A stretch of 64,000 nucleotides of DNA, taken from positions 2,080,001 to 2,144,000 of the forward strand of contig OZ240241.1 of assembly GCA_965198115.1 (NCBI GenBank). The letters run 5' to 3'. Source of the DNA: Candidatus Latescibacterota bacterium (GTDB lineage Bacteria > Latescibacterota > UBA2968). Under the pieces are notes generated by a model that was not told where the DNA came from, searched no databases, and saw only the letters and a program-made list of their open reading frames with translations. Within the stretch, counting starts at the first letter, position 1. Each line of letters opens with the position of its first letter. A program made the position numbers and the translations under genes. Shown in pieces: positions 12,629 through 31,819 of the stretch.

Positions 12629-12763
12629 GGTCGGTATGATAGGCGGGCGTGTCGGTGGACGCAATGCACAAACGGGCGTTGACCGCCCAAATGCGTTGAC
12701 GGTATCCGCCAGTGGGTTTACCATTTGCGGCCGTTCGACCATCCGCTGAAAGGAGCGCTCGAG

Positions 12764-14224: not shown

Positions 14225-14276
14225 CCCCCCAATCCTCGATTTTCGATTCTCGATACTCGATTAGAAGGGAAACAGA

Positions 14277-15411
14277 ATGAAAATCACGGACGTCACAACC
14301 ACCCGCTTCAAATACACCTCCAACACTGTCCGCGACACCGACGGCCACGGCCATCCTGGCCCCGAGCACGAGGCGATTCAAACGCTGCTGCAGATCGATA
14401 CCGATGAAGATGTCAACGGCTACTGGTTCGGCGCGAACCCGTCCATCGTCGAGAGCGTCATCAAACCCGCGCTCGTCGGACTCGATCCGTTCGATCGCGA
14501 ATGGATCTGGGACGACCTGAACCAACGACAGCGTCTGAATCTGGGAACGATGTCCGATCGCGTGCTCTGCAGCGTGGACTGCGCGCTGTGGGACCTCGCC
14601 GGCCGGGCTCTGGGGAAACCCGTTTACAAGCTCCTCGGCGGTTTTAGGGACACAGTCCCCGCCTACTGCAGCACGATGTGTGGCGACGACCTCGAGGGCG
14701 GTCTCGCGACGCCCCAGGACTATGCCAACTTCGCCGAGTGGGCGATGAAGAAGGGCTACCCCTCCTACAAACTCCACACCTGGCAGCCACCCTACGAGGG
14801 TGCTCCCAGCGTCAAGCGCGACCTGGAAGCGTGCGCTGCGGTACGTGACGTCTGTGGACCGGACGTGCCGCTCATGCTCGATCCCTACCACTACTATGAC
14901 AGGGAAGCCGCGCTCAAGCTTGCGAAGGGTCTTGAGGAAATCGACTACTACTGGATGGAAGAGCCCATGGACGAGCACAGCATGTCCTCATACATCTGGC
15001 TCACCGCGCAGACGTCGCTACCGATCTGCGGGCCGGAAACGTGCGAGGGCAAGATGTACGTCCGTGCCGAGTGGATCAAAAACAACGCGTGTGACATCAG
15101 CCGTGCCGGTGTCGGAGACGTTGGTGGCATCACCCCGCTGATGAAAACCGTTCACCTCTGCGAGTCGTTCGGGATGCGATGTGAAATCCACGGTGGGGGC
15201 CCCGGCAATCTCCACGCGCTCTGTGCGATGAAGAACGGCGAGTTTTACGAGCGTGGACTCCACTCCCTTCATCGAATTCGACGAACCCGCCGCCTGGCTC
15301 AACGAGCTTGTCGACCCTATGGACGGTCAAGGATTCGTCCACGTTCCGCAGACACCGGGCCTCGGAATGAATATCAACTGGGACTACATCGAGAAGAACA
15401 AGGTCGATTAG
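14277..15411 (+). CDS. Mandelate racemase/muconate lactonizing enzyme (enolase superfamily) protein, frameshift near 15263
   Basis: DCALWDLAGR..GKPVYKLLGG, WMEEP, GGIT. The family-like C-terminus (PFIEFD...VHVPQTPGLG.NINWD) lies in another frame ending at 15411. Confidence 0.88.
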
Positions 15412-15723
15412 GCCAAGGTCAGTTCTCAGAAGTCAGCGGAAATGCAAAGACCGCCCATCTTATTCATGCATCTGGCTACCGCTCTGGGTGGATATCGGTG
15501 CAGCTCCACAACTGAGGTGATATCGTATCGCCTTCCAAACGAGCCAACGGCCCGTAATACCTCAGCCCAGCCCAACGGGCTGGGGTCATCCGAACAAGCA
15601 AACGGGCACAGCGGGCCACAGCCCGCGATATCACCATCACAGGCGCATATCCGACACCTCACCTGGAGGAAATTTCCCCGATCCCGTCGTACGGTCTTTC
15701 CCGAACACTGAACACCTACCACT

Positions 15724-15791
15724 TAACACCTTATTTTACAACATCTTATCACCAATCAATCAACCGCTCTCTCAATTGGCACACCCCGTGC
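15724..15791 (+). promoter_or_regulatory. Putative sigma54 promoter (TGGCAC-N5-GTGC) preceded by an IHF-like AT-rich site
   Basis: GG at 15778-79 and GC at 15790-91 (GG-N10-GC); TAACACCTTATTTTACAACATCTTA at 15724-15748. Confidence 0.55.
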
Positions 15792-15859
15792 CCAGGTAAA
15801 GGTCGGACTGTAGAGCACCTCCCACGCTCTGGTTTCCCCGATCAATCGAGAGAGTCAAG

Positions 15860-16072
15860 ATGGGCATTCGAATTCTAGCAACACACCTGACTTGCCCCGC
15901 CTGTGGCAGCGCCTTTTCACCGATGAACCGCGTGAAAGGAGATCGATGCGAAGCCTGCGGGGAGTCGGCCGAACCAAATGTCTCGGAGAGCCTGTTCACA
16001 CGGCTTCGGGCGCGATTCAGACGACAAATGAACCCTCGCCAAGCCCGTTACGAGACGAACGTCAGTCTGTAG
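15860..16072 (+). CDS. Small zinc-ribbon-like protein (70 aa)
   Basis: CPAC...CEAC pair, purine-rich RBS, downstream of a sigma54-like promoter. Confidence 0.55.
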   Translation: MGIRILATHLTCPACGSAFSPMNRVKGDRCEACGESAEPNVSESLFTRLRARFRRQMNPRQARYETNVSL

Positions 16073-16272
16073 ATTCTCCTCCCCACTCGCTTCGCATAGC
16101 GAAGCGACCAACTGCTCGAGAACGAAAAGAGCCGTGGACGCCTTCCCCAAAAAGGCGACCGCGGCTCTTTTCGTTTCCTCTCCTTTTCCCCGCAAACCTT
16201 GCTACGTATCTTCTTCCCTCACCCTCCGATAGGTGGTGGTCTCGTGTCGATAGCCTGCCCAGAAACGGACAA

Positions 16273-16632
16273 TCACGGCAGAACCGTCGTCGCGTCTGTT
16301 CGTGCCTCTTCGATCGAGGCTGGGCTGAGGCCCCTGGCTCCCGTCAGATCCGCACCCGTCAGGTCGGCGAGCATCAAGTGCGCGTCGGTGAAGTCGGCGT
16401 CCCTTAAATCGCACCCGCTGAAGTCGGTGTATCGCAAATTGGCTTCACGAAACGTGGCGCCAGAGAGTCTGGCACCGCTCAAATTCGTCTTGAGGAAATT
16501 GACCCCCGAAAAGTCTCGACCCTCGAGACGTGCCCCGGTCAGGACCGGTCTGATCCGTAAATTCTCCGACCGCCACCGGTTCCAGACCGAGACCCCCTGT
16601 TTCAGGATGTCCAGATGTTTGGCGACCGCCAT
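16273..16632 (-). CDS. Pentapeptide repeat protein
   Basis: HLDILKQGV..WN.WR followed by A(D/N)Lxx repeats. Confidence 0.9.
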   Translation of the reverse strand: MAVAKHLDILKQGVSVWNRWRSENLRIRPVLTGARLEGRDFSGVNFLKTNLSGARLSGATFREANLRYTDFSGCDLRDADFTDAHLMLADLTGADLTGARGLSPASIEEARTDATTVLP

Positions 16633-16659
16633 CTTCGTGACCTCATTCGGGAGCGCTCT

Positions 16660-17349
16660 GTGCGACAGACCCTTCTTATCCTGACCCTACTGGCAACGTC
16701 GATTCCCACCTTTGGGAGCGACCAGCCGCGGCACATCGAAGTCGTGGGCACCGGCACGGTCTCTCGTGACCCGGACCAGGCCCGCATCAGTTTCGCCGTC
16801 GAAACCCAAGCCGAAACCGCCCAGCAAGCAACCGACCTGAACGCCACACGGACGACGCAGCTGATCGCTGCCATCCGGGAACACGGCATCCTCGAGTCGG
16901 ACTTGCGCACGCTTCATTATCGCCTGTCGCCTAGATACCGAACCGACGACCGTGGCAGGCAAACACTCGATCCCATCGGATTCGTCGCCCACAACACGGT
17001 AGAAGTCGTCGAGCGACGACTGGGTAAAATCGGCGGTCTCATCGATGCGGCCATAGAAGCCGGCGCCAACAGGATCGGCGGGATCGGCTTCGAGCTCTCC
17101 GAGCCTCAGACCGCCCGGCGGGAAGCCCTATCTGCGGCCGTCAGTTTGGCAAGACTCGATGCCGTCGTCATTGCCCGCGCATCGGGTCAGAAGCTGGGCG
17201 AAATCCTGCAAATCGTCTCGCACGGCGGGTCGCCCGTCCCACGATCCGAGCATGTCATGATGGCCACGCGGCAAGCTGACACGCCGATCGAAACGGGCGC
17301 CTTGCAGGTGAGTGCACGCGTCACGGTCCGATTCGCCCTCAAAGACTGA
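16660..17349 (+). CDS. SIMPL domain (DUF541) protein with signal peptide
   Basis: IEVVGTGTV..DPDQARI, IDAAIEAGANRI, ARREAL..AV..AR, VTVRF. Confidence 0.88.
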   Translation: MRQTLLILTLLATSIPTFGSDQPRHIEVVGTGTVSRDPDQARISFAVETQAETAQQATDLNATRTTQLIAAIREHGILESDLRTLHYRLSPRYRTDDRGRQTLDPIGFVAHNTVEVVERRLGKIGGLIDAAIEAGANRIGGIGFELSEPQTARREALSAAVSLARLDAVVIARASGQKLGEILQIVSHGGSPVPRSEHVMMATRQADTPIETGALQVSARVTVRFALKD

Positions 17350-17542
17350 GACAGGCGAGAATTAAGGTCCGGGTTGACACCCCGCAGGTCTGACCGTAGC
17401 TTTGGTGGTGATGACTTCGATCGGGGTCGGGCCCGTGACGGTGGCGTCGTTTAAATTCGCGCCCAATTGGGCATAAAGCACTGTGAACCAAGCAGTTGTA
17501 GCAATCCCAGACCCCTCTCTCCTTCCACAAGGGGGTCTCCCC

Positions 17543-17926
17543 ATGCCGCACATCCTTGTGATCGAAGACGACCCGCAAATCGGGCAGATCGTCCAGGAAA
17601 TCCTCCAACGGGCCGACCACGATGTCGACGTCGTGGAAGATGCGGAACAGGGCATTGCGAGCTACGCTGACAAGCGTCCCGACCTCGTCATCACCGACAT
17701 CATCCTGCCGGAAAAAGATGGCGTCGAGGCCATCCGCGACCTCAAAGCCAGCGACCCCGACGCTCGAATCATCGCGATGATCGGCCTCCGGGGCAGCTAT
17801 AATCGTCTTCCCGCCGCGGAGTTCGTCGGAGCGGCACGCACCCTCATGAAGCCGTTTACGCGGGAAGAACTGCTCACGGTCGTCGACGACGTCCTGGACG
17901 CGACTCCAACAGAATCTTCGAGCTGA
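17543..17926 (+). CDS. Single-domain response regulator (CheY-like)
   Basis: ILVIEDD, DLVITDIILP, KPF. Confidence 0.9.
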   Translation: MPHILVIEDDPQIGQIVQEILQRADHDVDVVEDAEQGIASYADKRPDLVITDIILPEKDGVEAIRDLKASDPDARIIAMIGLRGSYNRLPAAEFVGAARTLMKPFTREELLTVVDDVLDATPTESSS

Positions 17927-17958
17927 TCGCCCCCACCATCGTCAACACGCTTTGATCT

Positions 17959-19290
17959 TCACGCGCTTCGTGCCCAGAAGCTCGTCCGATCGTTCAGCTC
18001 GGTTTCCCATCGCGACATCTCACCACGCAGAGCCTTAACGACGTCGGCCTGATCCCGATCTTCGATCAGATTCGTCATTTCCCAAGGATCGGTTTTCAGA
18101 TCGAACAGCTGAGACGTTCGGTTCCCTTCCACTGCGTACTCGATCAGCTTGTGATCCCCACGCTTCGCACTCCGCTGAAACGCCTTGTAGGCGTATAACA
18201 GTGTCTCCCGCACACACTCGGATCCATCCCCCATCGCATTGACCAGACTCTCGCCTTCGACGGAGTCCGGAATCGGAAGGTCGGCCAGATCGAACAACGT
18301 CGGATAGATATCGTTCAGGTAGCAGTACGCCTCCCGGCGCTCGCCCCTCGGAATCCCCGGCCCCCTGAACACCAGAGGAACCCGCACGCTGTGCTCATAG
18401 ACGTTCTGTTTGCCCATCAGACCGTGTTGCCCCACGGCCAGCCCGTTGTCGCCCGCGAACACGACGATCGTATTCTCTCGATGACGCGTTTCTTCCAGCG
18501 TATCTAACAGCCTACCCACCTGTCGATCCAGGTGGGAAATCATCGCGTAATAGTCGGCGAGGTGCTGGCTCACGACCTCGGGCGTTCGGGGAAACGGCGC
18601 CAGTAGCTCGTCCCGCGTCTCCAGATCTCCGTTGTCGAACGGATGTCGCTCAAAACAGTTGGGCGGAAGCTTCAGCTTCTCCGCATCGTAAAGCGCGTGG
18701 AATTCCGGATGCGTATCACGTGGGTCGTGAGGGGCAGTAAACGAGACATACGCGAAAAATGGGGCTTGCCCATCGTAGCTTTTTAGAAAGTCGATCGCCG
18801 CCTCTGAAAACAGATCGCTCGAATGACGCTTGCTTTCTTGATAGATGCCTGCCTCAGCGTAGGTCCCCGATTCGTCGTAGGGATTGAGGGGCACCTTGAA
18901 GTGATCGCTCATTCCACCGAAGAAAATCCGGTCACCGTGGTCGAAGCATCGCGCGAACGCCGGTCGGCCGTTGTGCCACTTTCCCGTCCCGAAGGTCTGA
19001 TACCCGTGATCGCGTAGGGCTTCGGGCATCATGATGTGATTTTCCGGGATCGACTGTCCTTCCCCCTCGAGATGGAAAAGCGTGCGCCCCCGTCATCAGC
19101 ATGGCCCGACTTGGCATGCATACGGCGCCCGACGTCCCCCCATAATGCTGGCCTCGGTGAACATCGTCCCCTCTTCGACCAATCGGTCCAGGTTGGGTGT
19201 AATGACATCGTCGTTCCCGAGCGCGCGAATCGTGTCGTAGCGCTGATCGTCCGTGAACAGAAACAGAATGTTGGGTTTTGAACGGTCCAT
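17959..19290 (-). CDS. Cys-type sulfatase, with two homopolymer frameshifts near 19090 and 19138
   Basis: [13 protein letters not shown], (GAV)CMPSR, GKWH, APHDP and GDNG spread over three frames. Confidence 0.85.
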
Positions 19291-19577
19291 CAGTCGCTCT
19301 TCTCGATCTCCCAGCCTGTCAGAAAACTTCGGTCCTCTTCCATCGGCTGACACCAGATCCTCTTCGCCCGAAATCGCACTTCGAATTCGACCATTTCCCC
19401 GCCTCCCGTGTAGGCATCCAGATCATCGATGTCGTCACACCACAGCTGCAGACCCGAGGGACTGATGTCCACGATCTGAACATCCCTGAAGCCTCCACCA
19501 TCGACCTGTGCTTCGACCGGAAGAGCCAACCGCAACCGCGCGTTGCGGCGTTGATCGTTACCCGTTGCTTCTGCCAT
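19290..19577 (-). CDS. PilZ domain protein
   Basis: QRRNAR (RxxxR) and DISPSG (DxSxxG) motifs. Confidence 0.75.
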
Positions 19578-19807
19578 CCGAGTCTCCTTTCGGAAGTGAG
19601 AGTCCAAGATACATCGGTCCGGACGATCCGAGCAATCGGGTCCGCATTGGCTTCGGCATCAGCGTGGCTCTCTATGTAACAGGTTGACACACGTTAGAAA
19701 CCGACTGAAACTGCGGACGAGCGACGACGCAACTCCCACCACGACAGCTCCGCTGCCGAGGACTCCCCTGCAAACACGTACCGAAAGTCCTGTCACGAGT
19801 AAGCGCC

Positions 19808-21061
19808 TTGCGGCCTGATCCGGCCACGTGCGACTCGAAGACCTCGTCGGATTCCGGTCTCCTGCGAGCGGCCAGGCACAGACCGTTCCGGCAGCTGTGG
19901 ACCGCATCGATCATTTCGGCCTTCGCCACGTGGATGAACCGTTTGGCCGTGGGATGGTTCGTACTCGACCAGACCGATTCCGCGCTCCTGACCACGCTTG
20001 CTTACACAGTGCAATCGGCACCCGGTCTGTTCGTCGCCCCGTTCGGAGGGGCTTTGGCCGACCGCTTTCGGCGCAAGTACCTGCTCGCGCTCACGGCGGC
20101 CGTCGAATGTGGCGTCGCAGCCGGGCTGGCCCTCGTCGCCGTCGACGGCATCGAATCCGTATGGCCCGTCGTGCTTCTGGTCGGACTCACCGGTTGTGTC
20201 AACACACTAAAGACACCCTCGACGCAGACGTTGATCCCCGACACGGTCGGCCGAGGCGAAGGGATGAACGGGATCGCCCTCTACTCGGTCGGCATCCGTG
20301 GAGTCGCCGTGGTCGGCGCGCTCTCCGGAGGCATCCTGCTCGAGGTCCACGGCCCGGTGACCGTCTTCACCTCAGCCGCTATTCTCTTCGGCATCGCGGC
20401 TCTGGCCTTCACGCGAATCCGGGTGGCCTCGGCACGATCGACCGATGCGAGTGGGTCTCGCAAGACCGTCATTCAAGAAACGAAAGACGGGCTTCGCGTG
20501 ATGATCGGCCATCCGACCGTTCGCTCGCTCCTCGTCCTGGCCCTGCTCGTGGAGATTCTTTGCTTCTCCTTCCGATCGATTTTGCCGGTCGTGGCGCGCA
20601 ATCGTCTCGGACTCGACGAGTCGGGGCTCGGAGCGCTCACCGCGATGGGTGGGTTCGGGTCCCTCCTCGGCGCGCTCGCCCTCGTCGCACTCAGCGAGTA
20701 CGCACACAAAGGAAGAATGCTGATCCTGATCGCCGGTCTCTACGGGCTTGGCGTCCTGTCACTGGGAGCGTCGAGCCTCGTATGGCTGTCCTTCGCCGTC
20801 ATCGCATGCGTCGGATTGACAGCAGCCATTTTCGATGCGCTTCAGTGGGGTCTGCTCCAGGAAAACGTGCCCGACGAAATGCGCGGGCGTGCGGTGGGAG
20901 GATGGGTCTTCGCGGTGGGCTTCGGCTGGATCGGCCATCTGACCCTCGGAGCCGTGAGCGACGCCTTCGGGGTTCAGTGGGCGCTGGGGATCAACGGTGG
21001 GTTGGCAGTCCTTGTCGCGATCGTGGTCTTCGCGACGGGAAAGTCATTGAAGCAGGCGTGA
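19808..21061 (+). CDS. MFS transporter
   Basis: About 12 hydrophobic segments, GALADRFRRK motif A, VPDEMRGR. Confidence 0.9.
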   Translation: MRPDPATCDSKTSSDSGLLRAARHRPFRQLWTASIISAFATWMNRLAVGWFVLDQTDSALLTTLAYTVQSAPGLFVAPFGGALADRFRRKYLLALTAAVECGVAAGLALVAVDGIESVWPVVLLVGLTGCVNTLKTPSTQTLIPDTVGRGEGMNGIALYSVGIRGVAVVGALSGGILLEVHGPVTVFTSAAILFGIAALAFTRIRVASARSTDASGSRKTVIQETKDGLRVMIGHPTVRSLLVLALLVEILCFSFRSILPVVARNRLGLDESGLGALTAMGGFGSLLGALALVALSEYAHKGRMLILIAGLYGLGVLSLGASSLVWLSFAVIACVGLTAAIFDALQWGLLQENVPDEMRGRAVGGWVFAVGFGWIGHLTLGAVSDAFGVQWALGINGGLAVLVAIVVFATGKSLKQA

Positions 21062-21199
21062 GAAAGGTCCCAGAGCGACTCGACAGCGGGAGCGTTCCTC
21101 GCCGAGACGCATCGTTTGCCGACAAGAGGGCCGTCTTGAGGATGAGTCCAAACTGGGATATCATGAAAGAAGCAACTGTTCAACCACTCGAGGGAACCA

Positions 21200-21427
21200 A
21201 TGGCAGAAGAACTGGGCACGCGTGACGTGTTGGAGCAGGTCGACACTCGACTCGGCAACGTGGAACAGGACATACGCGAAATGCGATCCACTATGGATGC
21301 CCGCTTTGATCGAGTAGACGCACGCTTCGATCGAGTTCATCAAGACTGGCGGTGGCTCATAGGACTCTTCTTCGCCGGCTGGCTGTCCCTAATGGCCACC
21401 GTGGCCTCCATCTGGCTCAAGCTCTGA
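21200..21427 (+). CDS. Small coiled-coil protein with C-terminal membrane anchor (XhlA/DUF1640-like)
   Basis: Heptad repeat DARFDRV x2 followed by WLIGLFFAGWLSLMATVASIW; GAGG RBS. Confidence 0.7.
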   Translation: MAEELGTRDVLEQVDTRLGNVEQDIREMRSTMDARFDRVDARFDRVHQDWRWLIGLFFAGWLSLMATVASIWLKL

Positions 21428-21559
21428 CGTTGTCGAACAGTTGCTCAGGAAGTCGTCCAGATCAGCTCCCGATACGTCTCGGGCACCCAGCCACGTACCC
21501 CTTCGCAACCTCGCTCTCCCTACCTCCTCTCCAGGCAACCTCCCGACCCCACCAGATGT

Positions 21560-22561
21560 TCAAGCGATGTTCTTGAAATACTCGATCTTCCCACCCGCAG
21601 CCAGGTCTGCCACCTTGTCGATGAGGCCTTGACGGTCCTGTTGGCTCAACGCCACGAAATCGTGGGCTAGCACGATCTTCTCGCGCATCAGATCCGCGTT
21701 TTCGGCACCCGTAATCAGGACGCTTGCGGGTAGTGACCACACGAAGTGAAGGGCCTGGGCGACGCTGACGCGGCCAGGGATCACCGGGCTCTCGGTTTCC
21801 CACTGCACTCTGTCCAGCTTGATCTTCTTGGGAAAGAATCGTCCGTCTGCGAGCGTCTTCATCGCCAGCAGCGCCACATTGCGCTGTTGCAGGGTCGGCG
21901 TGATCTGTTCGATGAAGCTGTGGTAACTCGGGTCGAGCAGGTTCACGGGCATTTGGCACGTATCGAACAGATCCGTGTCCGCCGACCGCTCGAGCATTCG
22001 TCGGTGAGCCGCAGGGTTGCGGTGGCCCGTGAACCCGACGAAGCGCGCTTTGCCGGAGGCCTTAGCGCGTTCGAACACGTCCAGCACACCGCCCTCGATT
22101 CGCGCGTCTACGTCCTCAGGACTCCCGATCGCGTGGATCTGCCAGAGATCCAAATAGTCCGTCTTCAGCCGCTTGAGGGACTCGTCGAGGTGACGCTCTA
22201 CAGTCTCGGCATCTTTTCCGCCCGTTTTCGTCATAATGAAAACGTGTTCGCGGTATTTCGGTGTCAGGAATCGACCGTAGCGGTTCTCACTTTCCCCATC
22301 GGCATAGCTTTCCGCTGTGTCGAAGAAGCGCACGCCACCCGCCAGGGCTGCCTCGACCACAGCCTGTGCATCCCGCTCCGTCGTCCAACCGATGTGATAG
22401 CCGCCCACGCCGAGCATCGTGACCGACTCGCCGGTTCGACCGAGCTTTCTCTGCGGAAGCAACTCACCCAACCCGTCCCGAGCCCTGCCGCATCCCGCCG
22501 GGATCAGAACACTTGGCAGCGCGGCGAGCAGCGCTTTCAGAAAATGACGACGTTCCATCAT
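21560..22561 (-). CDS. Aldo/keto reductase with Tat/lipoprotein-like signal
   Basis: ERRHFLK...PAGC N-terminus; FFDTAESY, SLKRLKTDYLDLWQIH. Confidence 0.88.
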   Translation of the reverse strand: MMERRHFLKALLAALPSVLIPAGCGRARDGLGELLPQRKLGRTGESVTMLGVGGYHIGWTTERDAQAVVEAALAGGVRFFDTAESYADGESENRYGRFLTPKYREHVFIMTKTGGKDAETVERHLDESLKRLKTDYLDLWQIHAIGSPEDVDARIEGGVLDVFERAKASGKARFVGFTGHRNPAAHRRMLERSADTDLFDTCQMPVNLLDPSYHSFIEQITPTLQQRNVALLAMKTLADGRFFPKKIKLDRVQWETESPVIPGRVSVAQALHFVWSLPASVLITGAENADLMREKIVLAHDFVALSQQDRQGLIDKVADLAAGGKIEYFKNIA

Positions 22562-22646
22562 AACCTCCGATTCAAAAGCAGAACGGGCGACGGGGCGATC
22601 GGGCGAAGAAGCGGATCCTCAAACGTGACACTCTCCAAGGTTTTGC

Positions 22647-22715
22647 TCAGGCATCACGTCCCGCCTCCGCATACTCGATGGGAATCGTGACGATGAATGT
22701 GGAGCCGACACCTAG
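22647..22715 (-). pseudogene. 3' remnant of a histidine kinase gene
   Basis: Translates to LGVGSTFIVTIPIEYAEAGRDA* (HATPase G2-box end) and is cut exactly at the IS1380-like left end. Confidence 0.6.
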
Positions 22716-22735
22716 CCTGAATTATGCATAAAAAA

Positions 22736-24155
22736 GGCTCTATCCGGGTTTCTCAACGGTGAAACTATAGAATGACAAGGTCATAGATCGTTCCCTACGC
22801 TTGGTTGTGTGTGTAGGACAATCAAAGCGAAGGGGGTGCGACCTATGACCGGGAGCAGATTACTATCGAAACTGCTGAGATTCAAGGGGTTCCGTGTTGT
22901 CAGCTGGTGGTTTGAGGGGAGAAGCTGTTTCGTCATCGCCGTAAAGCCACATAAGAATGGTTGTTGTTGTCCGGAGTGCGGCCGTCGAGGTAAAATCGTC
23001 CGCACAATGCCCCATCCGCGTCGGTGGCGTGACATTCCGGTGTGCGGGTGGAGGGTCTGGCTTCTCTACCATCCTCGGGAGATTCGGTGTCCTACCCACG
23101 GTCGTGTGGTCGAGGAGATTCCGTGGGCGGAGCGGTTCTCTCGGGTGACGTATCGCTTCGAGTATGCCATGCTGCGCTACTGCCAGACCATGACGCAGAA
23201 GGCGGCGTCCGAGTTACTGCGCATCTCTGCCTCGACGCTGTCGGATCTCCTTCACCGATCCATCACGCGGCTTCGTGAAGGTCATCGTATCCGAGGGCTC
23301 AAAACCATCGGGATCGACGAGATCTCCTACGCCAAGCGTCACAGGTACGCCACGCTCGTTTACGATCTGGACCGCTCCTGCGTGGTGTGGGTTGGCCGCG
23401 GCAGGGCGCGTAAAACGATCGATCGGTTCTTCACAGAGGCTCTCAGTCCCTACCGGAGATCCAAGATCGAGTGGGCCTGCTGCGACATGAGCGAAGCTTA
23501 CATCGGAGCCATCCAGGAACACTGTCCGAATGCCAAGCTGGTCCTCGATCGCTTTCACATCGTCAAGGCTCTCAATGCCGCCGTTGACGAGGTCCGTAAG
23601 GACCAGTGGCGTAAAGCTGCCCCGGATGAGCGCAAAGCCATGAAGGGCCTCCGATGGCTCCTCTACCGGCACTCAGCGACACGCTCCAGAGGGGATACTC
23701 GGACACTCAAAGCACTGGAGAAGGCGAACTACCGAATCTATAGAGCCTGGAGACTCAAGGACGAGTTCGAGCAGTTCTGGGAATACAAAGCGCCCTGGGC
23801 TGCCGAACGCTTCCTGAAATGCTGGACGACGTCCGCACTCAGAAGTCGACTTGAACCCCTGCGAAAGTTCGTCAGGACCCTGCGACAGCACTTCTTCGGC
23901 GTCCTCGCATTCGTGAACACGCGTCTTACCAACGCCATCGCCGAAGGCCTCAACCGAATCGTCCAAATCGTCAAGAACCGAGCCAGCGGATTCCGCACAC
24001 TCGACGCATTCAACGATATGATCTTCCTTACCGTCGGAGACATAAACATCCCTGAGCAGATTCCGAAGAGGTTCCGCACACGCTAACCGCGCCCCCATGC
24101 CAGGAACCACGGCACCTTCACCCACTTCATCTCGTTGAGAGATCCGGATATAGCC
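22736..24155 (+). mobile_element. ISL3-family insertion sequence, complete
   Basis: 23-bp terminal inverted repeats (22736-58 and 24133-55; 20/23 match). AT-rich 8-bp flanks ATAAAAAA / ATTAAAAA (one mismatch). Confidence 0.92.
22845..24086 (+). CDS. ISL3 family transposase
   Basis: CPECG zinc finger, IGIDE, CDM, DRFHIV, TNAIAEGLN..Q.VK..A.GFR. Confidence 0.95.
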   Translation: MTGSRLLSKLLRFKGFRVVSWWFEGRSCFVIAVKPHKNGCCCPECGRRGKIVRTMPHPRRWRDIPVCGWRVWLLYHPREIRCPTHGRVVEEIPWAERFSRVTYRFEYAMLRYCQTMTQKAASELLRISASTLSDLLHRSITRLREGHRIRGLKTIGIDEISYAKRHRYATLVYDLDRSCVVWVGRGRARKTIDRFFTEALSPYRRSKIEWACCDMSEAYIGAIQEHCPNAKLVLDRFHIVKALNAAVDEVRKDQWRKAAPDERKAMKGLRWLLYRHSATRSRGDTRTLKALEKANYRIYRAWRLKDEFEQFWEYKAPWAAERFLKCWTTSALRSRLEPLRKFVRTLRQHFFGVLAFVNTRLTNAIAEGLNRIVQIVKNRASGFRTLDAFNDMIFLTVGDINIPEQIPKRFRTR

Positions 24156-24242
24156 ATTAAAAAGGTAGTCCCCTTGTACAAGTGTTTGTTTTTCCCTACA
24201 TTTAGGGCTGACACATCAAAACAACACTTGGAAGGAACTACC

Positions 24243-24733
24243 GTGATAGAACCTAGTCAGATCCGGTTACCATTCGCAAGCTTCGGGCAAGGTAGTTGAG
24301 GCTGATTTTGCCGGTGGCGCCGTCAGGAGTGACGGTGGAGTTCTGTTGCTTCGCGCCCTTGAGTCTCAGATGGGATTGATCGCCAGAATGGTAGATGCTT
24401 TGCGAGATCGTCGTCACCCAAGCTATATCGATCACACGCTTTTGGATCTTGTGAAGCAGCGTGTTTTTCAGATCGCTTGCGGCTATGAAGATGCCGTCGA
24501 TTGTGATGATTTGCGCCACGATCCGGGCGTCAAGGCTGCCTGCGATCGGCTTCCTCTTTCCGGTCCTGATCTCGGGAGCCAATCAACGATGACACGACTT
24601 GAGAATGATGTGCGACGCTCGGATTTGTATCGGCTCGCACGGGCTTTTGTAGACGGGTTCATCGCATCGTATGACCAGGCACCCCCAAGCATCATTCTCG
24701 ATATCGACGACACGGATGACCCAACGCACGGTG
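24243..24733 (+). pseudogene. IS1380-family transposase N-terminal fragment (frameshifted, truncated)
   Basis: ADFAGG...SDGG.LLLR, QRVFQIACGYED..D...LRHDP, SQSTMTRLEN, IILDIDDTDDPTHG. Confidence 0.88.
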
Positions 24734-24775
24734 CCGCCCGCGTACTCACACCATGAAGGTCAGAAAGGAATTGTA

Positions 24776-24940
24776 ATGGCGCATCTTCGAAGAATTAATC
24801 GACATAATAACACCAAGAAGAAGAATGGCAACACGCTTTCGTGCGATGACGGGTTCTACTACCCCGCCCCTGCCAAAACCCCCGATCTCAAGTCTGACGA
24901 TCAGGTCCAGGCCAAAGAAGCGAAGAAGAACGTCGCGTAA
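24776..24940 (+). CDS. Putative RiPP precursor peptide (54 aa)
   Basis: MAHLRRINRHNNTKKKNGNTLSCDDGFYYPAPAKTPDLKSDDQVQAKEAKKNVA. AGAAAGGAA RBS, stop 5 nt before the rSAM start, and an H-L-x-x-I-N leader as in SCIFF/CteA and QhpC. Confidence 0.8.
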   Translation: MAHLRRINRHNNTKKKNGNTLSCDDGFYYPAPAKTPDLKSDDQVQAKEAKKNVA

Positions 24941-24945
24941 GGGTA

Positions 24946-26354
24946 ATGCTGAAGAAGTCTGACATCCATCTGTTCGACTACGAAGGCCGCCCAATCGTAC
25001 TTCAGATCCAAACGGGCGATTTCTTCGAAGTCACTCGGCTCGTCGCTGAGATCCTCCGATCGGATGACGGTATCCGTCGCGAGGATCTCGTAGCCGACCT
25101 CTCTCCGAGCCACGGTTTCGAAGCCGTCATCGACGCGCTTTCGGAACTCGAAGCGGCGGACCTGGTCTCGTTCGGCCCAGTCTGCCCGCTCGTCGACTCG
25201 GGGGACGGTGCGGTGGTCCCTCCCACCCGCACGTCCGCCGAGACGATCACGATCACCCTCCACGTTTCGCACGCCTGTAACGTCACCTGCTCGTACTGCT
25301 TTGCACTCGGCGGCGACTATGGCGGGGAACCCAAGCTGATGGCCTGGAAACGGCGAAGCAGACTGTGGATTGGCTGATCGAGGCAACTCGAGATGCGGGT
25401 CGGTGTCAGATCGACTTCTTCGGAGGCGAGCCGCTCCTCCATCTCGGCCTCGTGAAGAAGACCGTGGCTTATGCGCGCCAGCAGGGCGCTGCGAACGGCG
25501 TTGCGGTTTCGTTCGGAATGACGACGAACGGAACCCTCCTATCGGGCGACGCACTCGAGTTCCTGATGGAAGAAGACATTGGAATCATGGTCAGCATCGA
25601 CAGCCCCAAGGAAGTCCACGACGCACAGCGCAGCTTCAATAACGGTGAGTCGACGTACGACATCGTGGCGGCGAACACGACAGAAGCTGCCCGCCGTGCG
25701 CCCGACAAGGTCTTGCTCCGGGCGACGATGACGAATAAAAACCTCGACATGATGGCCCTCGTGGACGAACTCGAGGGTTTCGAGGTCAATTCCGTTGGTG
25801 TCGGACCAGCGTGGCTTTCTCATCATCATCCTACGGCGATTCGGAAAGAGCACCTCCCCGAACTCAGGAAGCACATCCGAACGCTCGCAAACGATGAGCT
25901 GAAGCGTATCAAAGAGGGGCACAAGGCTGAAACATTCGCACCATTGATCAAGAAAGTCTTGTCGGGACAGAAGCGGGAATACGGGTGTGGTGGTGGGAAG
26001 ACCTACTTTGGCGTCGACGTCGATGGCGACATCTATTTCTGCTCGGCCTTCGGCAGCATGCCCGAATACAAAATGGGCGACGTCTGGAAGGGGCTGGACC
26101 CCACGGTGGACGCACGTTTCCGACGCGACTTCCACGTCGACAACAAGAAGACGTGCAGCCAGTGCTGGGCCCGATACCTCTGTGGCGGAGGCTGTGCCTA
26201 CGATGCCAGGGTATCAACCGGCGAACCCACCGAACCCAATCCGGTCGCTTGCGAGCGTACCCGCTACTCGCACGAACTCGCAATGGGAATGGCTCTCGAG
26301 CTGAGCGACCACGCACCGGATGCACTCGACCGCCTCCAGATCGAAAAGGTCTGA
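24946..26354 (+). CDS. RRE-containing radical SAM/SPASM peptide maturase (CteB/QhpD-like), single-base frameshift near 25347
   Basis: N-terminal IHLF...IVLQIQTGDFFEV RRE-like segment, CNVTCSYC, FFGGEPLL, TTNG, SPASM CGGG...DGDIYFC...CSQCWARYLCGGGC...C. Adding one G restores MAWETAKQTVDWL. Confidence 0.9.
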
Positions 26355-26364
26355 CGGAGATAAA

Positions 26365-27786
26365 ATGAGCAATCAAACACACACGACAAAGACCCCCTTG
26401 CCGATGGCGGAAACCCCAGAAAGTGCCCCCTCTGCGGGTCTAAATGCTTCGGCAAGGGGGCCGAAACGTCTCCCCCACGAGGGTTGGATGTTGGCTCCCC
26501 TCTATGTCGCCGAACATCATCTGTTCGAGCACAATGGTCGCACGCTTCTCTTTGGCGTCGGAACGGCCGACTTCTTCGAGATCGATGATGTCGTCGAGGA
26601 TGTGCTGAAGACAATCGAGGGCACCACACTCATCCAGCTGTTCGAGCGTCTTCGATCCTCTCACGGCGAAAAGGATCTCTACAGCGCAGTCCGCGAACTC
26701 CGTGAGGCCGAGATCGTTTCCGAAGAGCGGCTTGCCCGCCCGACGGCACCGGTCCTTCCCGGTCGTCTCGAAGTTTCGGAAATCGTCCTTGAAGTAACCA
26801 CGGATTCTCTGTCAGCACAGAGCGGGAGTCAGTATCTCCGTCCGGCGACCGGTCGAGAGGCCATCAGACTGTTGATGGAGGAGTCGGGGTGTCTCCGCAC
26901 GTGTTCCCTCACGCTCACGGGAGAGCCACTCCTCAATTCCCAGCTCACACTCGATCTGCTCGATCACGCCATCGAACGCGCCGAGCAGATCGGCAAGCGA
27001 TTGCGCCTGGCCGTCGTCACCAATCCAAGATTGGTGAACGAGCGTATTCGTATCTCGCTGAAGCGTCGTGGTGTCGATCTCGTCATCAACGACACAGCGG
27101 GTACGCTCGAAGGCGTGCACGGCTCGGGACCGGCCAGCCTGCAGAGAAGCGCGCTCACGAGTAGTCCACCCACGCATCTTCGCATCGAATCGGTGGATGA
27201 AACGCCGGTGCACCAGATTCGAGAGGCTTTAGACGAAAATCAAAACCTCGCGACGGTCGATCTCCCACCATCGACACCCGGACACCTCTGTCCTGTCTCC
27301 GAAAGAGATCTCGAAGAACTCAGCGCATTCGTCAGCCAGCACGTCATGTCCTCGAAAATGACCTGGATCGGCCCGATCGAGGACTCGGCGGCTCAAGTCT
27401 TCAACGGCCGCCGCGCCAGCTACGGCGACTCAGCTGGCATCACCAGTCTCGCTGTTGGCTGCGATGGAACGATTTACGTGTCCGAAGAAGTCATCGGAGA
27501 TTCCCGCTACCGGATGGGCCACATCCAGAGTGGGCTCGATCAGGGCCGGCGGGCTCAGTGGATTCGAGAAGCCCACGTCGATGCCCGACCCGGCTGCCAG
27601 ACCTGTTGGGCCCGACATCTCTGCGGTGGCGGGTCGACGGTGGCGGTGGGCAATTGCCCAGATCCCGACTCCGACTACTGCACGATCGTGCGTCGGTCCT
27701 ACGAACTGGCAATGGGTTTATGCGTAGACCTCGACGTGCGAAACCCCGATCTCCTCGAACAACGCTACGGACAGGGTGCTGCGTGA
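26365..27786 (+). CDS. Degenerate radical SAM/SPASM paralog with RRE, lacking CxxxCxxC
   Basis: RRE-like HHLFEHNGRTLLFGVGTADFFEID; LEVTTDSLSAQSGSQY replaces the Cys motif; GEPLL and CQTCWARHLCGGGS...C retained. Confidence 0.82.
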   Translation: MSNQTHTTKTPLPMAETPESAPSAGLNASARGPKRLPHEGWMLAPLYVAEHHLFEHNGRTLLFGVGTADFFEIDDVVEDVLKTIEGTTLIQLFERLRSSHGEKDLYSAVRELREAEIVSEERLARPTAPVLPGRLEVSEIVLEVTTDSLSAQSGSQYLRPATGREAIRLLMEESGCLRTCSLTLTGEPLLNSQLTLDLLDHAIERAEQIGKRLRLAVVTNPRLVNERIRISLKRRGVDLVINDTAGTLEGVHGSGPASLQRSALTSSPPTHLRIESVDETPVHQIREALDENQNLATVDLPPSTPGHLCPVSERDLEELSAFVSQHVMSSKMTWIGPIEDSAAQVFNGRRASYGDSAGITSLAVGCDGTIYVSEEVIGDSRYRMGHIQSGLDQGRRAQWIREAHVDARPGCQTCWARHLCGGGSTVAVGNCPDPDSDYCTIVRRSYELAMGLCVDLDVRNPDLLEQRYGQGAA

Positions 27787-28990
27787 ACATCCTCTTCTAC
27801 CAGGACACGTCGGGAGTCAGCGGGGCGGAGATATGGATCGCCGACGCCGCTCGACGTCTGCGCGAGCGAGGGCACGGGATCAGCCTGTCAGCGCCGACCG
27901 AATCCTGGATAGCTGCCCAAGACCGGCATCACGGATTCCCGCTCGTCGATTTCTTCTCCGGCGATGGATTCGACGCCCATCGGCGGTGGATCCTGGCTGA
28001 ACATCTTTCTGCAGCGAGCGTAGACATCGTGGTGTGCAGCATTCCCGGCGCAAGGATGGAGGTGCCACTCCTAGATCAAGCGATTCGGGATGCGGGACGA
28101 GGTAAAATCCTGATTCGTCTGGGTGTCGCCCCTGGCGAAGGCGCCTTTCCACCCGAACGAGTGGGCTACGGCTACGACACCGTTAGTGGGATCATTGCTG
28201 TCTCCCGCGACGTCAAGCATCATCTCGTCCGCAACTTCCCGATGCTCGACAGAGACAGAATCCACGTCGTCTACAATGGCGTCGACCTCGAGCGATTCGG
28301 TCCAGAAACCCACAGCGACGTCGAACGTGCCTCCCAGCGACGCGACCTGGACATTCCCGCCGACCACCGTGTCGTCGCGGCCGTCGGACGGCTCGATCCG
28401 ATCAAGAATCTGCCTTGCCTGATCGACGCAGCCGACATCGTCCTCGAGCGCTTCCCCGCGACCACCTTCGTCATCGCTGGCGACGGTGCAGAACGCGTCA
28501 CGCTCGAAAAATGCGGTCGTCTCCAAAGGGTTGAGTGACGCCTTTTCGCTTTCCCGGTTTCGTCAAAGATGTCCCTGGACTGTTGTCCATCGTCGACATC
28601 GTCGTGCATCCCTCCCTGTCGGAGGGCGTACCCAACACGCTTTTGGAAGCAATGGCTGCCCAGAAGGCCGTGGTGGCATCCGAGGTCGGTGGAATTTCGG
28701 AGGTCGTCGACAATCCTGAAGTCGGCGTGCTCGTTCCCCCCGCCAGTCCATCGGCTCTGGCCGAGACACTCACATCCCTCGTCGGCAGCGAGGATCGACG
28801 CGCAGGACTGGGCTCGAGGGCCCGAGCGCACGTTCTATCTCACTTTGACCGAGCCACCAACATCAGACAGATCGAAGACCTGTTCGACCAGGTTCTACGA
28901 TCGGCAACACCGCTCGCACCGGCGTCCGAACAGCAGCTATACGATCCACCCTACGCGTTTACTGCGCGTGACCATCTGTTGCGTGCATAG
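27783..28990 (+). CDS. GT4 (GT-B) glycosyltransferase, with two +1 homopolymer slips near 28510 and 28545
   Basis: SGAE, VVYNGVD, VGRLDPIKN, IAGDG, PSLSEG.PN.LLEAMA, VGG..EVV; GTG start overlaps the upstream TGA. Confidence 0.88.
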
Positions 28991-29123
28991 TCTGCCGGCG
29001 GCCGTCGGGTGGGCCGCCGGTGGACCATAGATTGGGAACCCCACAAAAGCTTCAGACGTGCAAAGAGTCGGGCAATCTTCTTCTGGGAGGATGCCCGTTT
29101 GTTTTTGACTAAACAGGCCTTCA

Positions 29124-29513
29124 ATGCCGAAGATTCTCCTCATCGACGACGAACCTGACGTGCGACACGTCACGCGGGAGTGCCTGTCAACCAAGGGCTT
29201 CGAGGTCGATATCCCGGCCGTCGAAGACTCGGCCATATCCCGCTCGACCGTTCAAGCGGCCACGACGGACGGATACGATCTGATCATTCTCGATCTCCGA
29301 CTCCCACACCTGGACCCGTTCGATCTGATTCGATCCGTAAACGAATCAGAGGGTCCGCCGATCATGGTTCTGGCCGGTTTTCTGTCGCTGGAGCTCGAGA
29401 GCAGCCTGCGAGCAGCCGGAGTCCATTCGTTCACGACCAAACCGTTTACATTTTCGGATCTCCTGTCCTCGGTCGAAGAGTGCATGGCATCATCGGTGGC
29501 CGTCCGTATTTGA
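29124..29513 (+). CDS. Single-domain response regulator
   Basis: ILLIDDE, DLIILDLRLP, KPF. Confidence 0.88.
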   Translation: MPKILLIDDEPDVRHVTRECLSTKGFEVDIPAVEDSAISRSTVQAATTDGYDLIILDLRLPHLDPFDLIRSVNESEGPPIMVLAGFLSLELESSLRAAGVHSFTTKPFTFSDLLSSVEECMASSVAVRI

Positions 29514-29544
29514 AACCGGGAAAAAGATCACTCACAAAATACAG

Positions 29545-29579
29545 GAGGGGATCGCGAAGCACGCGATCCCCTCTTTCTT
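29545..29579 (+). terminator. Intrinsic terminator
   Basis: 12-bp stem gaggggatcgcg/cgcgatcccctc followed by tttctt. Confidence 0.75.
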
Positions 29580-29614
29580 GTGCAATAGGGCGAAGCCGTC
29601 TCGGCCGCCAACCG

Positions 29615-29695
29615 CCTGCCCTGAGCTGTGCCCTGAGTAAGCGACCGAAGGTCGCTGTACCGAAGAGTAGCCTGCGAAGCAGGCTTATTGAAGGG
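29615..29695. repeat. Nested REP-like elements (CTGAG...GAAG type)
   Basis: cctgccctgagc...ttgaaggg encloses gccctgagtaagcgaccgaaggtcgct and the hairpin agcctgcgaagcaggct. Confidence 0.45.
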
Positions 29696-31819
29696 TCAAC
29701 TATCGACCTTCTCTGAGACGAGCATCAGCGGATGCCATACCGGAATCCCGGTCCCTTCGCCAAGGTGGATGCTGCAGACACTCGATTCGGTCACGATCGC
29801 TTCCACTCCTGCCTCGCTAAACCCATCGAACAACGGCTCACCCACCGCGTTTGCCAATTCGTAGCCGAGCTGCCCCGTCTTCAGGCCGAACGTGCCCGCC
29901 ATTCCGCAGCAGGTGCCCGTTTCGATCACCTCGACCTGGGCACCCCGACGTTTTAGAAACTCGATCGCACCTGCGCCGGAACCCAGTGGGCGCTGATGAC
30001 ACGGAATGTGGAAACCGAATCGACGGCCCGCCAGAGAAGTCGTGTCAATCGTTTCCTCGAGCGTGTCGACATACTCGAAAAACTCCGACGTGTTCTTCGC
30101 CACAATCAACGCGTCTTCGTCCTCATCCAGAAGTTTTGGGTAGGACTTGCACAGACAGTAGGCGGCCGTCGGCTCGGTCGTCACGATGTCATAGCCCTTC
30201 TCTACCCACGGCGTCAAAAGGGACACATTCTCCCGCGCGATCTTCCGCGCACCCGTCAGGTCACCGTAGCCGATCGCCGGATAGCCGCTCGTCACCTGCT
30301 CCGGGAATTCCACCGCACAACCCAACCGCTCGAGGTGCTCGACAGCGGCCATCCCCAAAGCGGGTTCGTTGTAATTGGCAAAGATATCGGCAAAGAAGGC
30401 GACCTTCCGTCTGGGGGCCTTTACAGGAGACGGCCCACGCCGTCGTAAGCGCTTCTGCAACGTGTTCCGATTGAACACCGGAAGATTTCGTCTCCGATCG
30501 ATTCCCACTACCTTTTCGAGCACGTAGCGGAAGACGCGGTTCCGCATCATCCAGTTTGAAAGCGGTGCGGTCATCGAGCCCACCCTCGCGCCCCGCTCCG
30601 CATCCATCAGGAACCGATTCACGCGCGGATGCGGATGGGCTTCGGAGTCCCGTTCCTTGACGCCGGCGATCATCATCGGAATGTCGATCTCGGCCGGACA
30701 GATCTCCTTGCATAGCCCGCACGAGATGCAGAGCGGGGCGAAATCGCCCGCGAGTTCGAGACCGTGCACCTCCGACGTCCACGGAATCCCGATCGGTCCC
30801 GGATAGATGTGGCCGAAGGTATGTCCGCCGACGACACCGTAGGTGGGACACACGTTCATGCACGCGCCACACCGGATGCAGTTGAGAGCGTCGCTGAACA
30901 GCGGATCCTGAGCCATCTCCGTCCGCCCGTTGTCCAGAATGATGATGTGCGTTTCCCGTGGCTCCCGCCCTTCCCCGTCGCCCAGCGGTGACCGGCCGGC
31001 CTGAAACGTCACATACGTCGTCGTATGCTGGCCCACCGCGCTGATAGGATGGGCAAGCAGCATCATCACGGCGTCCCCGCACGACTCGACGATCTTCTCT
31101 CGCCCCATCACGCAAATGTGCACATCCGGAATGCTCGAGACTAGACGCGCGTTACCCTCGTTCGTCTCGATGACGATCGCCCCTGTGTCGGCGATGCCCA
31201 CGTTCGCCCCCGTCATCCCGATGTCGGCGTCCAGGAAGATCGGTCTCAAATATCTTCGGACGACCTTCATGATCTCGTTCACGTCGTTCGGCACATCCTC
31301 ACCCGTTTCGCGCCGGAAGATCTCAGCTACCTGAACAGCCGTCTTGTGGACCGCGGGGAACACAAGATGGAAGGGCTTCTCATGAACCTTCTGAATGATC
31401 AGCTCACCCAGATCGGTCTCGATCACGTCCATTCCTGCATCTTCCATCGGATGGTTGATCTCGATCTCTTCCGTCGTCAATGATTTCGATTTGGCGCAGG
31501 ACTTCGCACCCTTGTCGGCGGCCAGCTTGAGCACGTAGGCGATGGCCTCCGCTCCGTCCTTCGCCAGGAGGACGTGTGCTCCCCTCCTTTTGAGGTTCAA
31601 AACGAACCGATCGACCAACTCCTCTTGTTCCGACTGACAACGAAGCTTGATCTCGCGAACTTCCTTCCTAAAGCCCTCGCCCCCCGGCAGCTCGTCGAGC
31701 GCCGATCTCCGGCTGTCACGGGCACGTTTTACTGCCCGGTAGAGCTGGTCCCGCTGGGGTCTCTCTTCGATCGCTCGCGCGATCTTCGCGTTCAGCCTCT
31801 CGTATCGGATCTCAGCCAT
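29696..31819 (-). CDS. LUD-domain Fe-S protein (LutB/LldF-like) fused to a CCG-domain module
   Basis: KSKS..TEEI, ETDLGE, TNEGN, CIRCGACMNVCP, CISCGLCKEICP, HIPCH, CCGMAG. Confidence 0.88.
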   Translation of the reverse strand: MAEIRYERLNAKIARAIEERPQRDQLYRAVKRARDSRRSALDELPGGEGFRKEVREIKLRCQSEQEELVDRFVLNLKRRGAHVLLAKDGAEAIAYVLKLAADKGAKSCAKSKSLTTEEIEINHPMEDAGMDVIETDLGELIIQKVHEKPFHLVFPAVHKTAVQVAEIFRRETGEDVPNDVNEIMKVVRRYLRPIFLDADIGMTGANVGIADTGAIVIETNEGNARLVSSIPDVHICVMGREKIVESCGDAVMMLLAHPISAVGQHTTTYVTFQAGRSPLGDGEGREPRETHIIILDNGRTEMAQDPLFSDALNCIRCGACMNVCPTYGVVGGHTFGHIYPGPIGIPWTSEVHGLELAGDFAPLCISCGLCKEICPAEIDIPMMIAGVKERDSEAHPHPRVNRFLMDAERGARVGSMTAPLSNWMMRNRVFRYVLEKVVGIDRRRNLPVFNRNTLQKRLRRRGPSPVKAPRRKVAFFADIFANYNEPALGMAAVEHLERLGCAVEFPEQVTSGYPAIGYGDLTGARKIARENVSLLTPWVEKGYDIVTTEPTAAYCLCKSYPKLLDEDEDALIVAKNTSEFFEYVDTLEETIDTTSLAGRRFGFHIPCHQRPLGSGAGAIEFLKRRGAQVEVIETGTCCGMAGTFGLKTGQLGYELANAVGEPLFDGFSEAGVEAIVTESSVCSIHLGEGTGIPVWHPLMLVSEKVDS

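Follow-up and report, generated by a model that had tools for sequence, protein, structure and literature searches.

A short single-cysteine ORF as the probable precursor gene of a small RiPP cluster not yet catalogued in Latescibacterota, present here in a probably inactive copy

The 54-codon ORF at positions 24776 to 24940 of the window (the whole 64,000-nucleotide stretch of Candidatus Latescibacterota DNA that we analyzed) is best explained as the gene for the precursor peptide in a small RiPP cluster of Latescibacterota that has not been catalogued. Under this reading, to which we assign a probability of about 0.68, the adjoining radical SAM (rSAM) enzyme likely binds the leader of the peptide and cross-links Cys23, and the copy in the window is probably inactive. 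The original prediction had described the peptide and overlooked both the broken state of this copy and the pseudo-rSAM and glycosyltransferase module behind it.

The precursor ORF and its relatives

24156..24734, plus strand: 5' remnant of an IS1380 element (NF033539), cut at 24734, 41 nt ahead of the peptide ATG
24762..24770, plus strand: Shine-Dalgarno-like AGAAAGGAA, 5' of the peptide ATG
24776..24940, plus strand: precursor peptide gene, 54 aa (translation, homologues, RBS, position)
24782..24799, plus strand: leader recognition motif H3-L-R-R-I-N8, predicted RRE binder (conservation of Lxx[IVA]N[GRA]; HIxxI in PMC12710340)
24833..24856, plus strand: core motif T20-L-S-C23-x-x-x-F27 (subgroup conservation; Cys23 codon at 24842-24844)

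The inner start at 24776, proposed originally for an ORF hidden within a longer frame, proved real: it follows the RBS-like AGAAAGGAA, and homologues start at the same Met. The layout was likewise as first read, with a translation that begins MAHLRRIN, a sole Cys at position 23 within LSCDDGFYYPAP, and all Phe and Tyr residues in that same segment. The stop codon lies 5 nt ahead of the rSAM start. An 89-aa reading from a start at 24671 was rejected, since that start falls in the IS1380 remnant (24156-24734) and the longer reading is thus a junction artefact. A protein search returned an independently called homologue (P0005; one homologue among two candidates) with 73% identity to the window peptide and the same start Met, and its cluster contains a second, near-identical member. 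Both retain MAHLRRINR, LSCD, FYYPAP, and the tail, together with D24 and the D24-x3-Y28 spacing; D25 is replaced by Gly in both.

We scanned the genome, which contains 54,497 small ORFs, for the two motifs. The window peptide was the only one to carry leader and core motif together (leader alone, 112 ORFs; core motif alone, 5), the core motif having been picked with the window peptide in view. Profile HMMs built without the peptide placed it at rank 515 to 8,239 of the 54,497 or left it unranked, so its kinship to distant subgroups rests on position, synteny, and short motifs. No second precursor copy was found in this genome, no relative was found in the viral contigs searched, Rfam gave 0 matches over 22000-30000 of the window, and a PDB search with the peptide alignment gave one chance match and nothing else. 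An origin of the ORF by chance, as a frame created by IS rearrangement, could be argued from these HMM ranks and from searches of Pfam and NCBIfam (no match) and the ESM Atlas (no usable match); however, two independent homologues with about 73% identity and the same start contradict this idea, and RBS, position, and motifs are all present, making it extremely improbable.

A genome scan with the enzyme alignment yielded 45 loci, nearly all with Latescibacterota titles, and a metagenome scan gave 1 locus. Three of the 45 lacked upstream DNA or the enzyme N part, leaving 42, of which 41 had a leader-bearing ORF upstream of the enzyme: 40 of the 42 encoded ATG/RBS peptides with an Lxx[IV]N leader (one of these, L080, is frame-broken ahead of the core and was omitted from counts), 1 was TTG-started, and 1 was frame-broken. 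Scan loci and protein-search members together gave 66 distinct precursors, with fragments and frame-broken sequences omitted. All 66 carry the leader Lxx[IVA]N[GRA], which was also the filter that found most of them; the core Cys, which was not used as a filter, is present in 65 of the 66. The importance originally attached to Cys23 was therefore borne out, as was the SCIFF/QhpC-type leader, given its HIxxI-type motif and the adjoining CteB-clade enzyme. Aligning the ORFs upstream of homologous rSAMs, a check proposed at the outset, thus upheld the leader and did not uphold the CDD motif, which occurs in 1/65 precursors. Within the subgroup of the window peptide, an H-type leader is found in 14 of 16 members, [TS]L[ST]C in all 16, D/E at Cys+1 in 11, and an aromatic residue at Cys+4 in 15, compared to 14 of 49 outside the subgroup. 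C-x-P occurs in many family members.

Among 33 precursors of one genus, pN/pS was lowest in the Pro-rich follower (0.17), followed by the leader (0.27), and was highest across seven core codons (0.77), a pattern indicating real genes with a variable core. In genus g4 (L027-L041, L048-L086), up to three paralogous loci of kinase-activator, peptide, and rSAM genes were observed per genome, and their peptides have a hypervariable 7-residue core between the conserved leader and a VPPLPFP-poly-Asp follower. Precursor models of Pfam and NCBIfam gave only chance-level matches for all 42 aligned family members. A profile HMM of the 42 peptides matched 21 of 1.84 billion representatives; 13 of these were newly read and either belonged to the family or were broken copies of types already represented in it, and 4 weak or long matches (P0045, P0053, P0055, and P0057) were left out of this reading. 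The literature searched (main texts, with PMC13692751 at the level of abstract and outline) contained no description of this precursor family, and the part of PMC12993501 concerned merely lists Latescibacterota antiSMASH "ranthipeptide" clusters. The family is probably an uncatalogued Latescibacterota RiPP.

The adjacent maturase and the chemistry at Cys23

24946..26354, plus strand: maturase gene (RRE, radical SAM, SPASM) with a frameshift near 25345-25370

The N part of the maturase (24946-25377) carries an intact CxxxCxxC, with the break just past it, and the C part carries a seven-Cys SPASM domain. An intact orthologous enzyme, 51% identical to the window C part, has CteB (5WGG; E = 7e-64) as its nearest solved structure. 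In an enzyme tree of 24 rows (midpoint root), the family enzymes formed a supported clade apart from the SCIFF-like outgroup, and the pseudo-rSAMs formed another clade. The seven SPASM Cys are invariant in 45/45 distinct enzymes. In CteB and PapB, this seven-Cys pattern is described as an AuxI cluster with three ligands, whose open site binds the substrate thiol (PMC10177961, as excerpted), and the AuxI site of the window maturase likewise has three Cys.

The family shares with the SCIFF/thermocellin pair CteA-CteB (TIGR03974; 5WGG/5WHY) an HLxxIN-type leader, an RRE-rSAM-SPASM enzyme, and the seven SPASM Cys; HLRRIN of the window peptide fits HIxxI, characterized as an RRE recognition motif in the relevant section of PMC12710340. 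Of six catalytic-site positions (numbered as in the site comparison of PMC10288494), the first four are F-F-T-S in both, whereas positions 5 and 6 are His-Gln in CteB and Ser-Ala in the window family (F-F-T-S-H-Q versus F-F-T-S-S-A). Unlike SCIFF precursors (TIGR03973), which have six Cys in about 45 residues, the window peptide has one, and a pseudo-rSAM, a GT4, and a kinase-sigma-54 activator are extra on the window-family side. With PapA-PapB (freyrasin) and QhpC-QhpD, the family has in common the enzyme clade, the Fe-S pattern, and the leader Asn. The spacing between Cys and the residue four positions on resembles PapA CX3D; however, the family has no conserved Asp/Glu acceptor, and Cys+4 of the window peptide is Phe. 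The window locus also differs from Qhp systems in that no dehydrogenase subunits were among the flanking genes scanned, which comprise transposases, the pseudo-rSAM, GT4, and a response regulator. The intact orthologue scored below the model cut-offs for SCIFF maturases (TIGR03974; 278 versus 425 bits), QhpD (TIGR03906; 270 versus 453 bits), PapB (NF047865; 267 versus 340 bits), and nif11. The E-x3-Y core of PqqA is likewise not conserved in the family, nor was a PqqE model matched at E < 1e-20 by related enzymes. As in ranthipeptides, whose products carry a thioether to a carbon other than C-alpha, the enzyme belongs to the CteB/PapB/QhpD group of RRE-rSAM-SPASM proteins and has a three-Cys AuxI. 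The window system probably works like a ranthipeptide system and, by these comparisons, lies outside the SCIFF, Pap, Qhp, Pqq, and Bacteroidales GG systems.

Three cross-links had been suggested from the window peptide, and the motifs for them are not conserved among the precursors. Because these motifs are unconserved, whereas [TS]L[ST]C and the Cys+4 aromatic are conserved in the subgroup, a single Cys23 thioether is favored, and the adjacent rSAM enzyme would probably be the one to form it. In the proposed sequence of events, the RRE very probably binds the HLxxIN leader, as predicted from the motif; Cys23 would then bind the Fe of AuxI at its open site, with 5'-dA taking H from a nearby residue, and the result would probably be one C-S bond.

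The first suggested link, a PapB/QhpD-type Cys-to-Asp beta-thioether from Cys23 to Asp24 or Asp25, is supported by the 267 to 270 bits that the related enzyme scores on the PapB and QhpD models, by D24 in the two closest homologues and D/E at Cys+1 in most of the subgroup, and by the incomplete linkage by PapB of a CX0D substrate noted in PMC9413430. Across the family, however, D occupies Cys+1 in 8/65 precursors and Cys+2 in 1/65, and D/E occupies Cys+4 in 7/65. In addition, PapB Arg372, presented as essential and thought to bind the carboxylate in the PapB work (PMC9413430, in part), lies two residues past AuxI Cys370 and maps to catalytic-site position 6, where 45/45 family enzymes have Ser or Ala. 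This linkage is therefore quite unlikely. A PqqA-like D-x3-Y carbon-carbon link or an FYY aromatic cross-link, leaving the Cys unconsumed, fares worse and is very unlikely: both D24-Y28 and D25-Y29 do fit the spacing, as originally pointed out, and D24-x3-Y28 is retained in the two closest homologues, but D/E-x3-Y occurs in 3/65 precursors and adjacent aromatics occur in 6/65, compared to the nearly universal Cys. Moreover, no PqqE model was among the families matched at E < 1e-20 by four related enzymes, and the AuxI site has three Cys.

Oxidation of Cys23 to a thioaldehyde or formylglycine without ring formation, as by sulfatase maturases (anSME), would suit a single Cys with no family-wide acceptor, the C-x-P of many members, and an anSME structure as second PDB match. 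That match has an E value of 1e-16, against 7e-64 for CteB, and scores are 91 to 114 bits, against about 270 for thioether families; the presence of an RRE and leader also argues against this chemistry, which we regard as improbable.

Assuming a thioether, Phe27, the Cys+4 aromatic, is the leading candidate acceptor, at its benzylic C-beta or at C-alpha, in a pocket where Ser/Ala replaces His/Gln-Arg; this assignment is tentative. The absence of the Cys+4 aromatic from 1/16 precursors in the subgroup and from 35/49 outside counts against it. For NxxcB-type radical mechanisms, the discussion in PMC9389541 holds that any residue with a beta-carbon is usable in theory. The single thioether might instead go to Thr20, to Ser22, or, in the manner of type-2 sactipeptides, to a backbone C-alpha, a possibility that we also hold only loosely. 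T/S stands at Cys-3 in 16/16 subgroup members, CteB-type enzymes make Cys-Thr links, GggB/QmpB are ranthisynthase-like yet sactionine forming (PMC10288494, section on these enzymes), and the family core is hypervariable. Conversely, PapB requires the Cys upstream of the acceptor in the substrates reported in PMC9413430, T/S at -3 is not conserved elsewhere in the family, and this possibility varies the Cys23 step without amounting to a separate system.

An extra Cys three residues ahead of the first AuxI Cys was observed in 42 of 46 family enzymes (L043-L087, L117). The four without it (and the window enzyme) include all three with a known [TS]LSC-type peptide. The extra Cys could fill the open site, and there may be two chemistries within one family.

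The pseudo-rSAM and glycosyltransferases

26365..27786, plus strand: intact pseudo-radical-SAM protein of 473 aa that retains the RRE, the barrel, and the AuxII Cys
27783..28990, plus strand: GT4 glycosyltransferase gene; overlaps the pseudo-rSAM stop; frameshifted near 28520-28544
L117:4166-6117 (G079), plus strand: fusion of an RRE-like domain and a GT9 heptosyltransferase, between rSAM and pseudo-rSAM
L116:9045-10409 (G077), minus strand: shortened copy of this RRE-like-GT9 fusion, between rSAM and pseudo-rSAM

The pseudo-rSAM has lost the SAM-cluster motif (CxxxCxxC) and the AuxI Cys. Its predicted fold is CteB-like (pLDDT 77; Foldseek match to 5WHY, E = 5e-18), and mean identity is 44% across the RRE but 28% across the latter half of the barrel. 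Its close relatives (P0059-P0064, P0007) include both intact and fragmentary proteins, which suggests repeated pseudo-rSAM decay in this lineage. Genome G028 has a part-degenerate second rSAM (L024:8897-10378) followed by a different GT4; this rSAM keeps CxxxCxxC, has lost most SPASM Cys, and groups with the pseudo-rSAMs, and from its sequence it looks like an intermediate stage toward them.

Among 168 genomes of the phylum, 7 contain the GT4 subfamily, which lies directly behind a pseudo-rSAM in 6 of the 7; the seventh (G001) holds an IS-cut remnant. The contig of G006 stops ahead of the GT4 position. In G037, the peptide beside the pseudo-rSAM and GT4 is of another type and lacks the T/S-L-S motif. 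Behind that GT4 (L023:12975-17239) are genes for a CAAX-type protease, a ThiF-family protein, and a nitroreductase-family protein, resembling a separate azole-peptide cluster.

The RRE-like-GT9 fusion was found in 2/168 genomes (G077 and G079). The G079 protein matches GT9 at E = 3e-30; the shortened G077 copy has no Pfam match. The N terminus of the fusion is 33 to 49% identical to the RREs of the rSAM and pseudo-rSAM at its own locus (pairwise E = 3e-8 and 3e-7) and scores 20.2 bits on the PqqD model, for which the cut-off is 23.4. The model of this domain has a pLDDT of 64, and its top four Foldseek rows are RREs, none of which reaches E 0.001; in VIA-align, it ties RRE with Fur-type winged helices at Z < 7. 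The modeled fold thus agrees with an RRE without singling it out. In the ESM Atlas, the fusion matched only GT9 clusters. The L117 fusion also contains a charged insertion, in frame, that recurs at other places in the same genome.

A glycosyltransferase that carries an RRE would be expected to act on a peptide. Judging from gene arrangement and domain content, we give even odds that the module glycosylates the peptide: the dead pseudo-rSAM would grip the peptide via its own RRE and present it to GT4, which would O-glycosylate Thr20 or Ser22. GtfB of the two-protein GtfA/GtfB complex is non-catalytic. That complex O-glycosylates Ser/Thr (PMC6291802, as summarized there), and RREs fused to PF00535 (GT2) enzymes are reported in the fusion survey of PMC12710340; the window family differs in that the enzyme is GT9 where fused and GT4 where separate, with the dead rSAM as proposed adaptor.

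Somewhat short of even odds, the glycosyltransferases could instead act on cell-surface glycans or small molecules, with the pseudo-rSAM merely a partner subunit of the active enzyme. Most loci do without both genes (GT4 in 6/48 stretches versus rSAM in 47/48), many sit among glycan-synthesis genes, and pseudo-rSAMs elsewhere are hypothesized to be rSAM partners (PMC10352776, in the passage on these proteins). Against this stand the occurrence of the GT4 subfamily only with a pseudo-rSAM (one remnant excepted), the overlap of the pseudo-rSAM stop and GT4 start codons, and the two RRE-like-GT9 fusions; a partner-subunit role is further opposed by the sufficiency of the rSAM alone in most loci.

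The Bacteroidales GG-peptide system (TIGR04148, TIGR04150, TIGR04157) similarly places an rSAM, a pseudo-rSAM, and a glycosyltransferase beside a precursor (PMC10352776, as outlined there). TIGR04157 is the best but weak NCBIfam match of the window GT4 N part (52.6 versus 400 bits), the family rSAM scores 91.5 versus 300 bits on TIGR04148, the window pseudo-rSAM does not match TIGR04150, and the double-Gly leader and C39 transporter of the Bacteroidales system are both missing from the window system. The two are probably parallel architectures.

No recurring peptidase or exporter was found among the 22 commonest neighbor clusters of the 48 stretches (sequences and partial Pfam scans), and the product would therefore likely stay full length inside the cell. 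The trimming on both sides that had been expected for an internal core is accordingly disfavored.

Regulation and decay of the window locus, and what the family offers

22741..24130, plus strand: ISL3 element, outside the system; transposase ORF 22809-24086 (NF033550, 303 bits)

In relatives, a sigma-54 -24/-12 site was found in 38 of 40 upstream regions, compared to 3.4% of 4,000 random windows, at 58 to 123 nt upstream. In 39 of 40 cases, a gene encoding a kinase-AAA-TPR-GAF-sigma-54 activator (about 1,600 aa) also has its end no more than 1.2 kb away. This Ser/Thr-kinase-TPR-GAF-sigma-54 fusion is likely to turn the operon on. Among the three subgroup loci checked for the site, L044 has a near-consensus copy, and L080 and L117 have none. 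The window has no -24/-12 site within 2.1 kb, and its genome matches only the AAA+ domain of the activator; the IS1380 remnant occupies the place of the promoter and kinase-activator of relatives.

With the enzyme and GT4 frameshifted and an IS remnant in the promoter and regulator place, the window copy is probably inactive. The genome has 32 IS1380 copies that run on into the transposase, whereas the copy cut at 24734 runs into the upstream DNA of the peptide, and this junction is present on a 10.3-kb contig of the sample. Two runs of one sample each gave a contig of this length that matches 24705-29200 without mismatch or gap, which places both the breaks and the IS junction in the reads of the sample; this sample is probably the source of the assembly and is not independent of it. 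Assembly error as the origin of the frameshifts was rejected on the agreement of these contigs, again from one sample, with no minority intact form. Sample contigs also match 12500-22400. Within that interval, an enolase/racemase-like gene (14277-15515) and a sulfatase-like gene (17959-19353), so labeled by sequence appearance, seem frame-split, with exact matches in the sample contigs.

Broken orthologues amount to 22 of 170 same-genus ORFs in this genome (about 13%; 16 frameshifts and 6 stops), some of which may be shadow ORFs. In the same-genus genome G001, the IS-cut GT4 alone remains at the syntenic place, with no rSAM match. ISL3 has expanded massively in the window genome, to at least 225 full copies, and about 33 IS1380 copies are present in addition. 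This genome measures 8.4 Mb, versus 5.6 Mb for G001. The window copy is consequently a poor bench target, and the intact loci L117 (G079) and L044 (G006) are better.

The family offers short single-Cys substrates for an uncharacterized CteB-like branch that lacks the His/Arg pocket, and with a single Cys in the substrate, one -2 Da event could be enough to reveal the acceptor rule. The pairing of pseudo-rSAM with GT4 and the RRE-GT9 fusion make the role of the pseudo-rSAM testable; the account of pseudo-rSAMs in PMC10352776 assigns them no function. In its fullest form, the scheme would be a glyco-ranthipeptide pathway in which an rSAM enzyme with an emptied Ser/Ala pocket joins Cys to the benzylic carbon of a Phe, Tyr, or Trp at +4, a dead rSAM serves as leader-binding GT4 adaptor, an RRE-GT9 adds a heptose-type sugar in some lineages, and a kinase-sigma-54 activator controls the operon. 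As a complete package this is unlikely, but if true, the thioether linkage would be new, and a pseudo-rSAM would for the first time have an assigned function.
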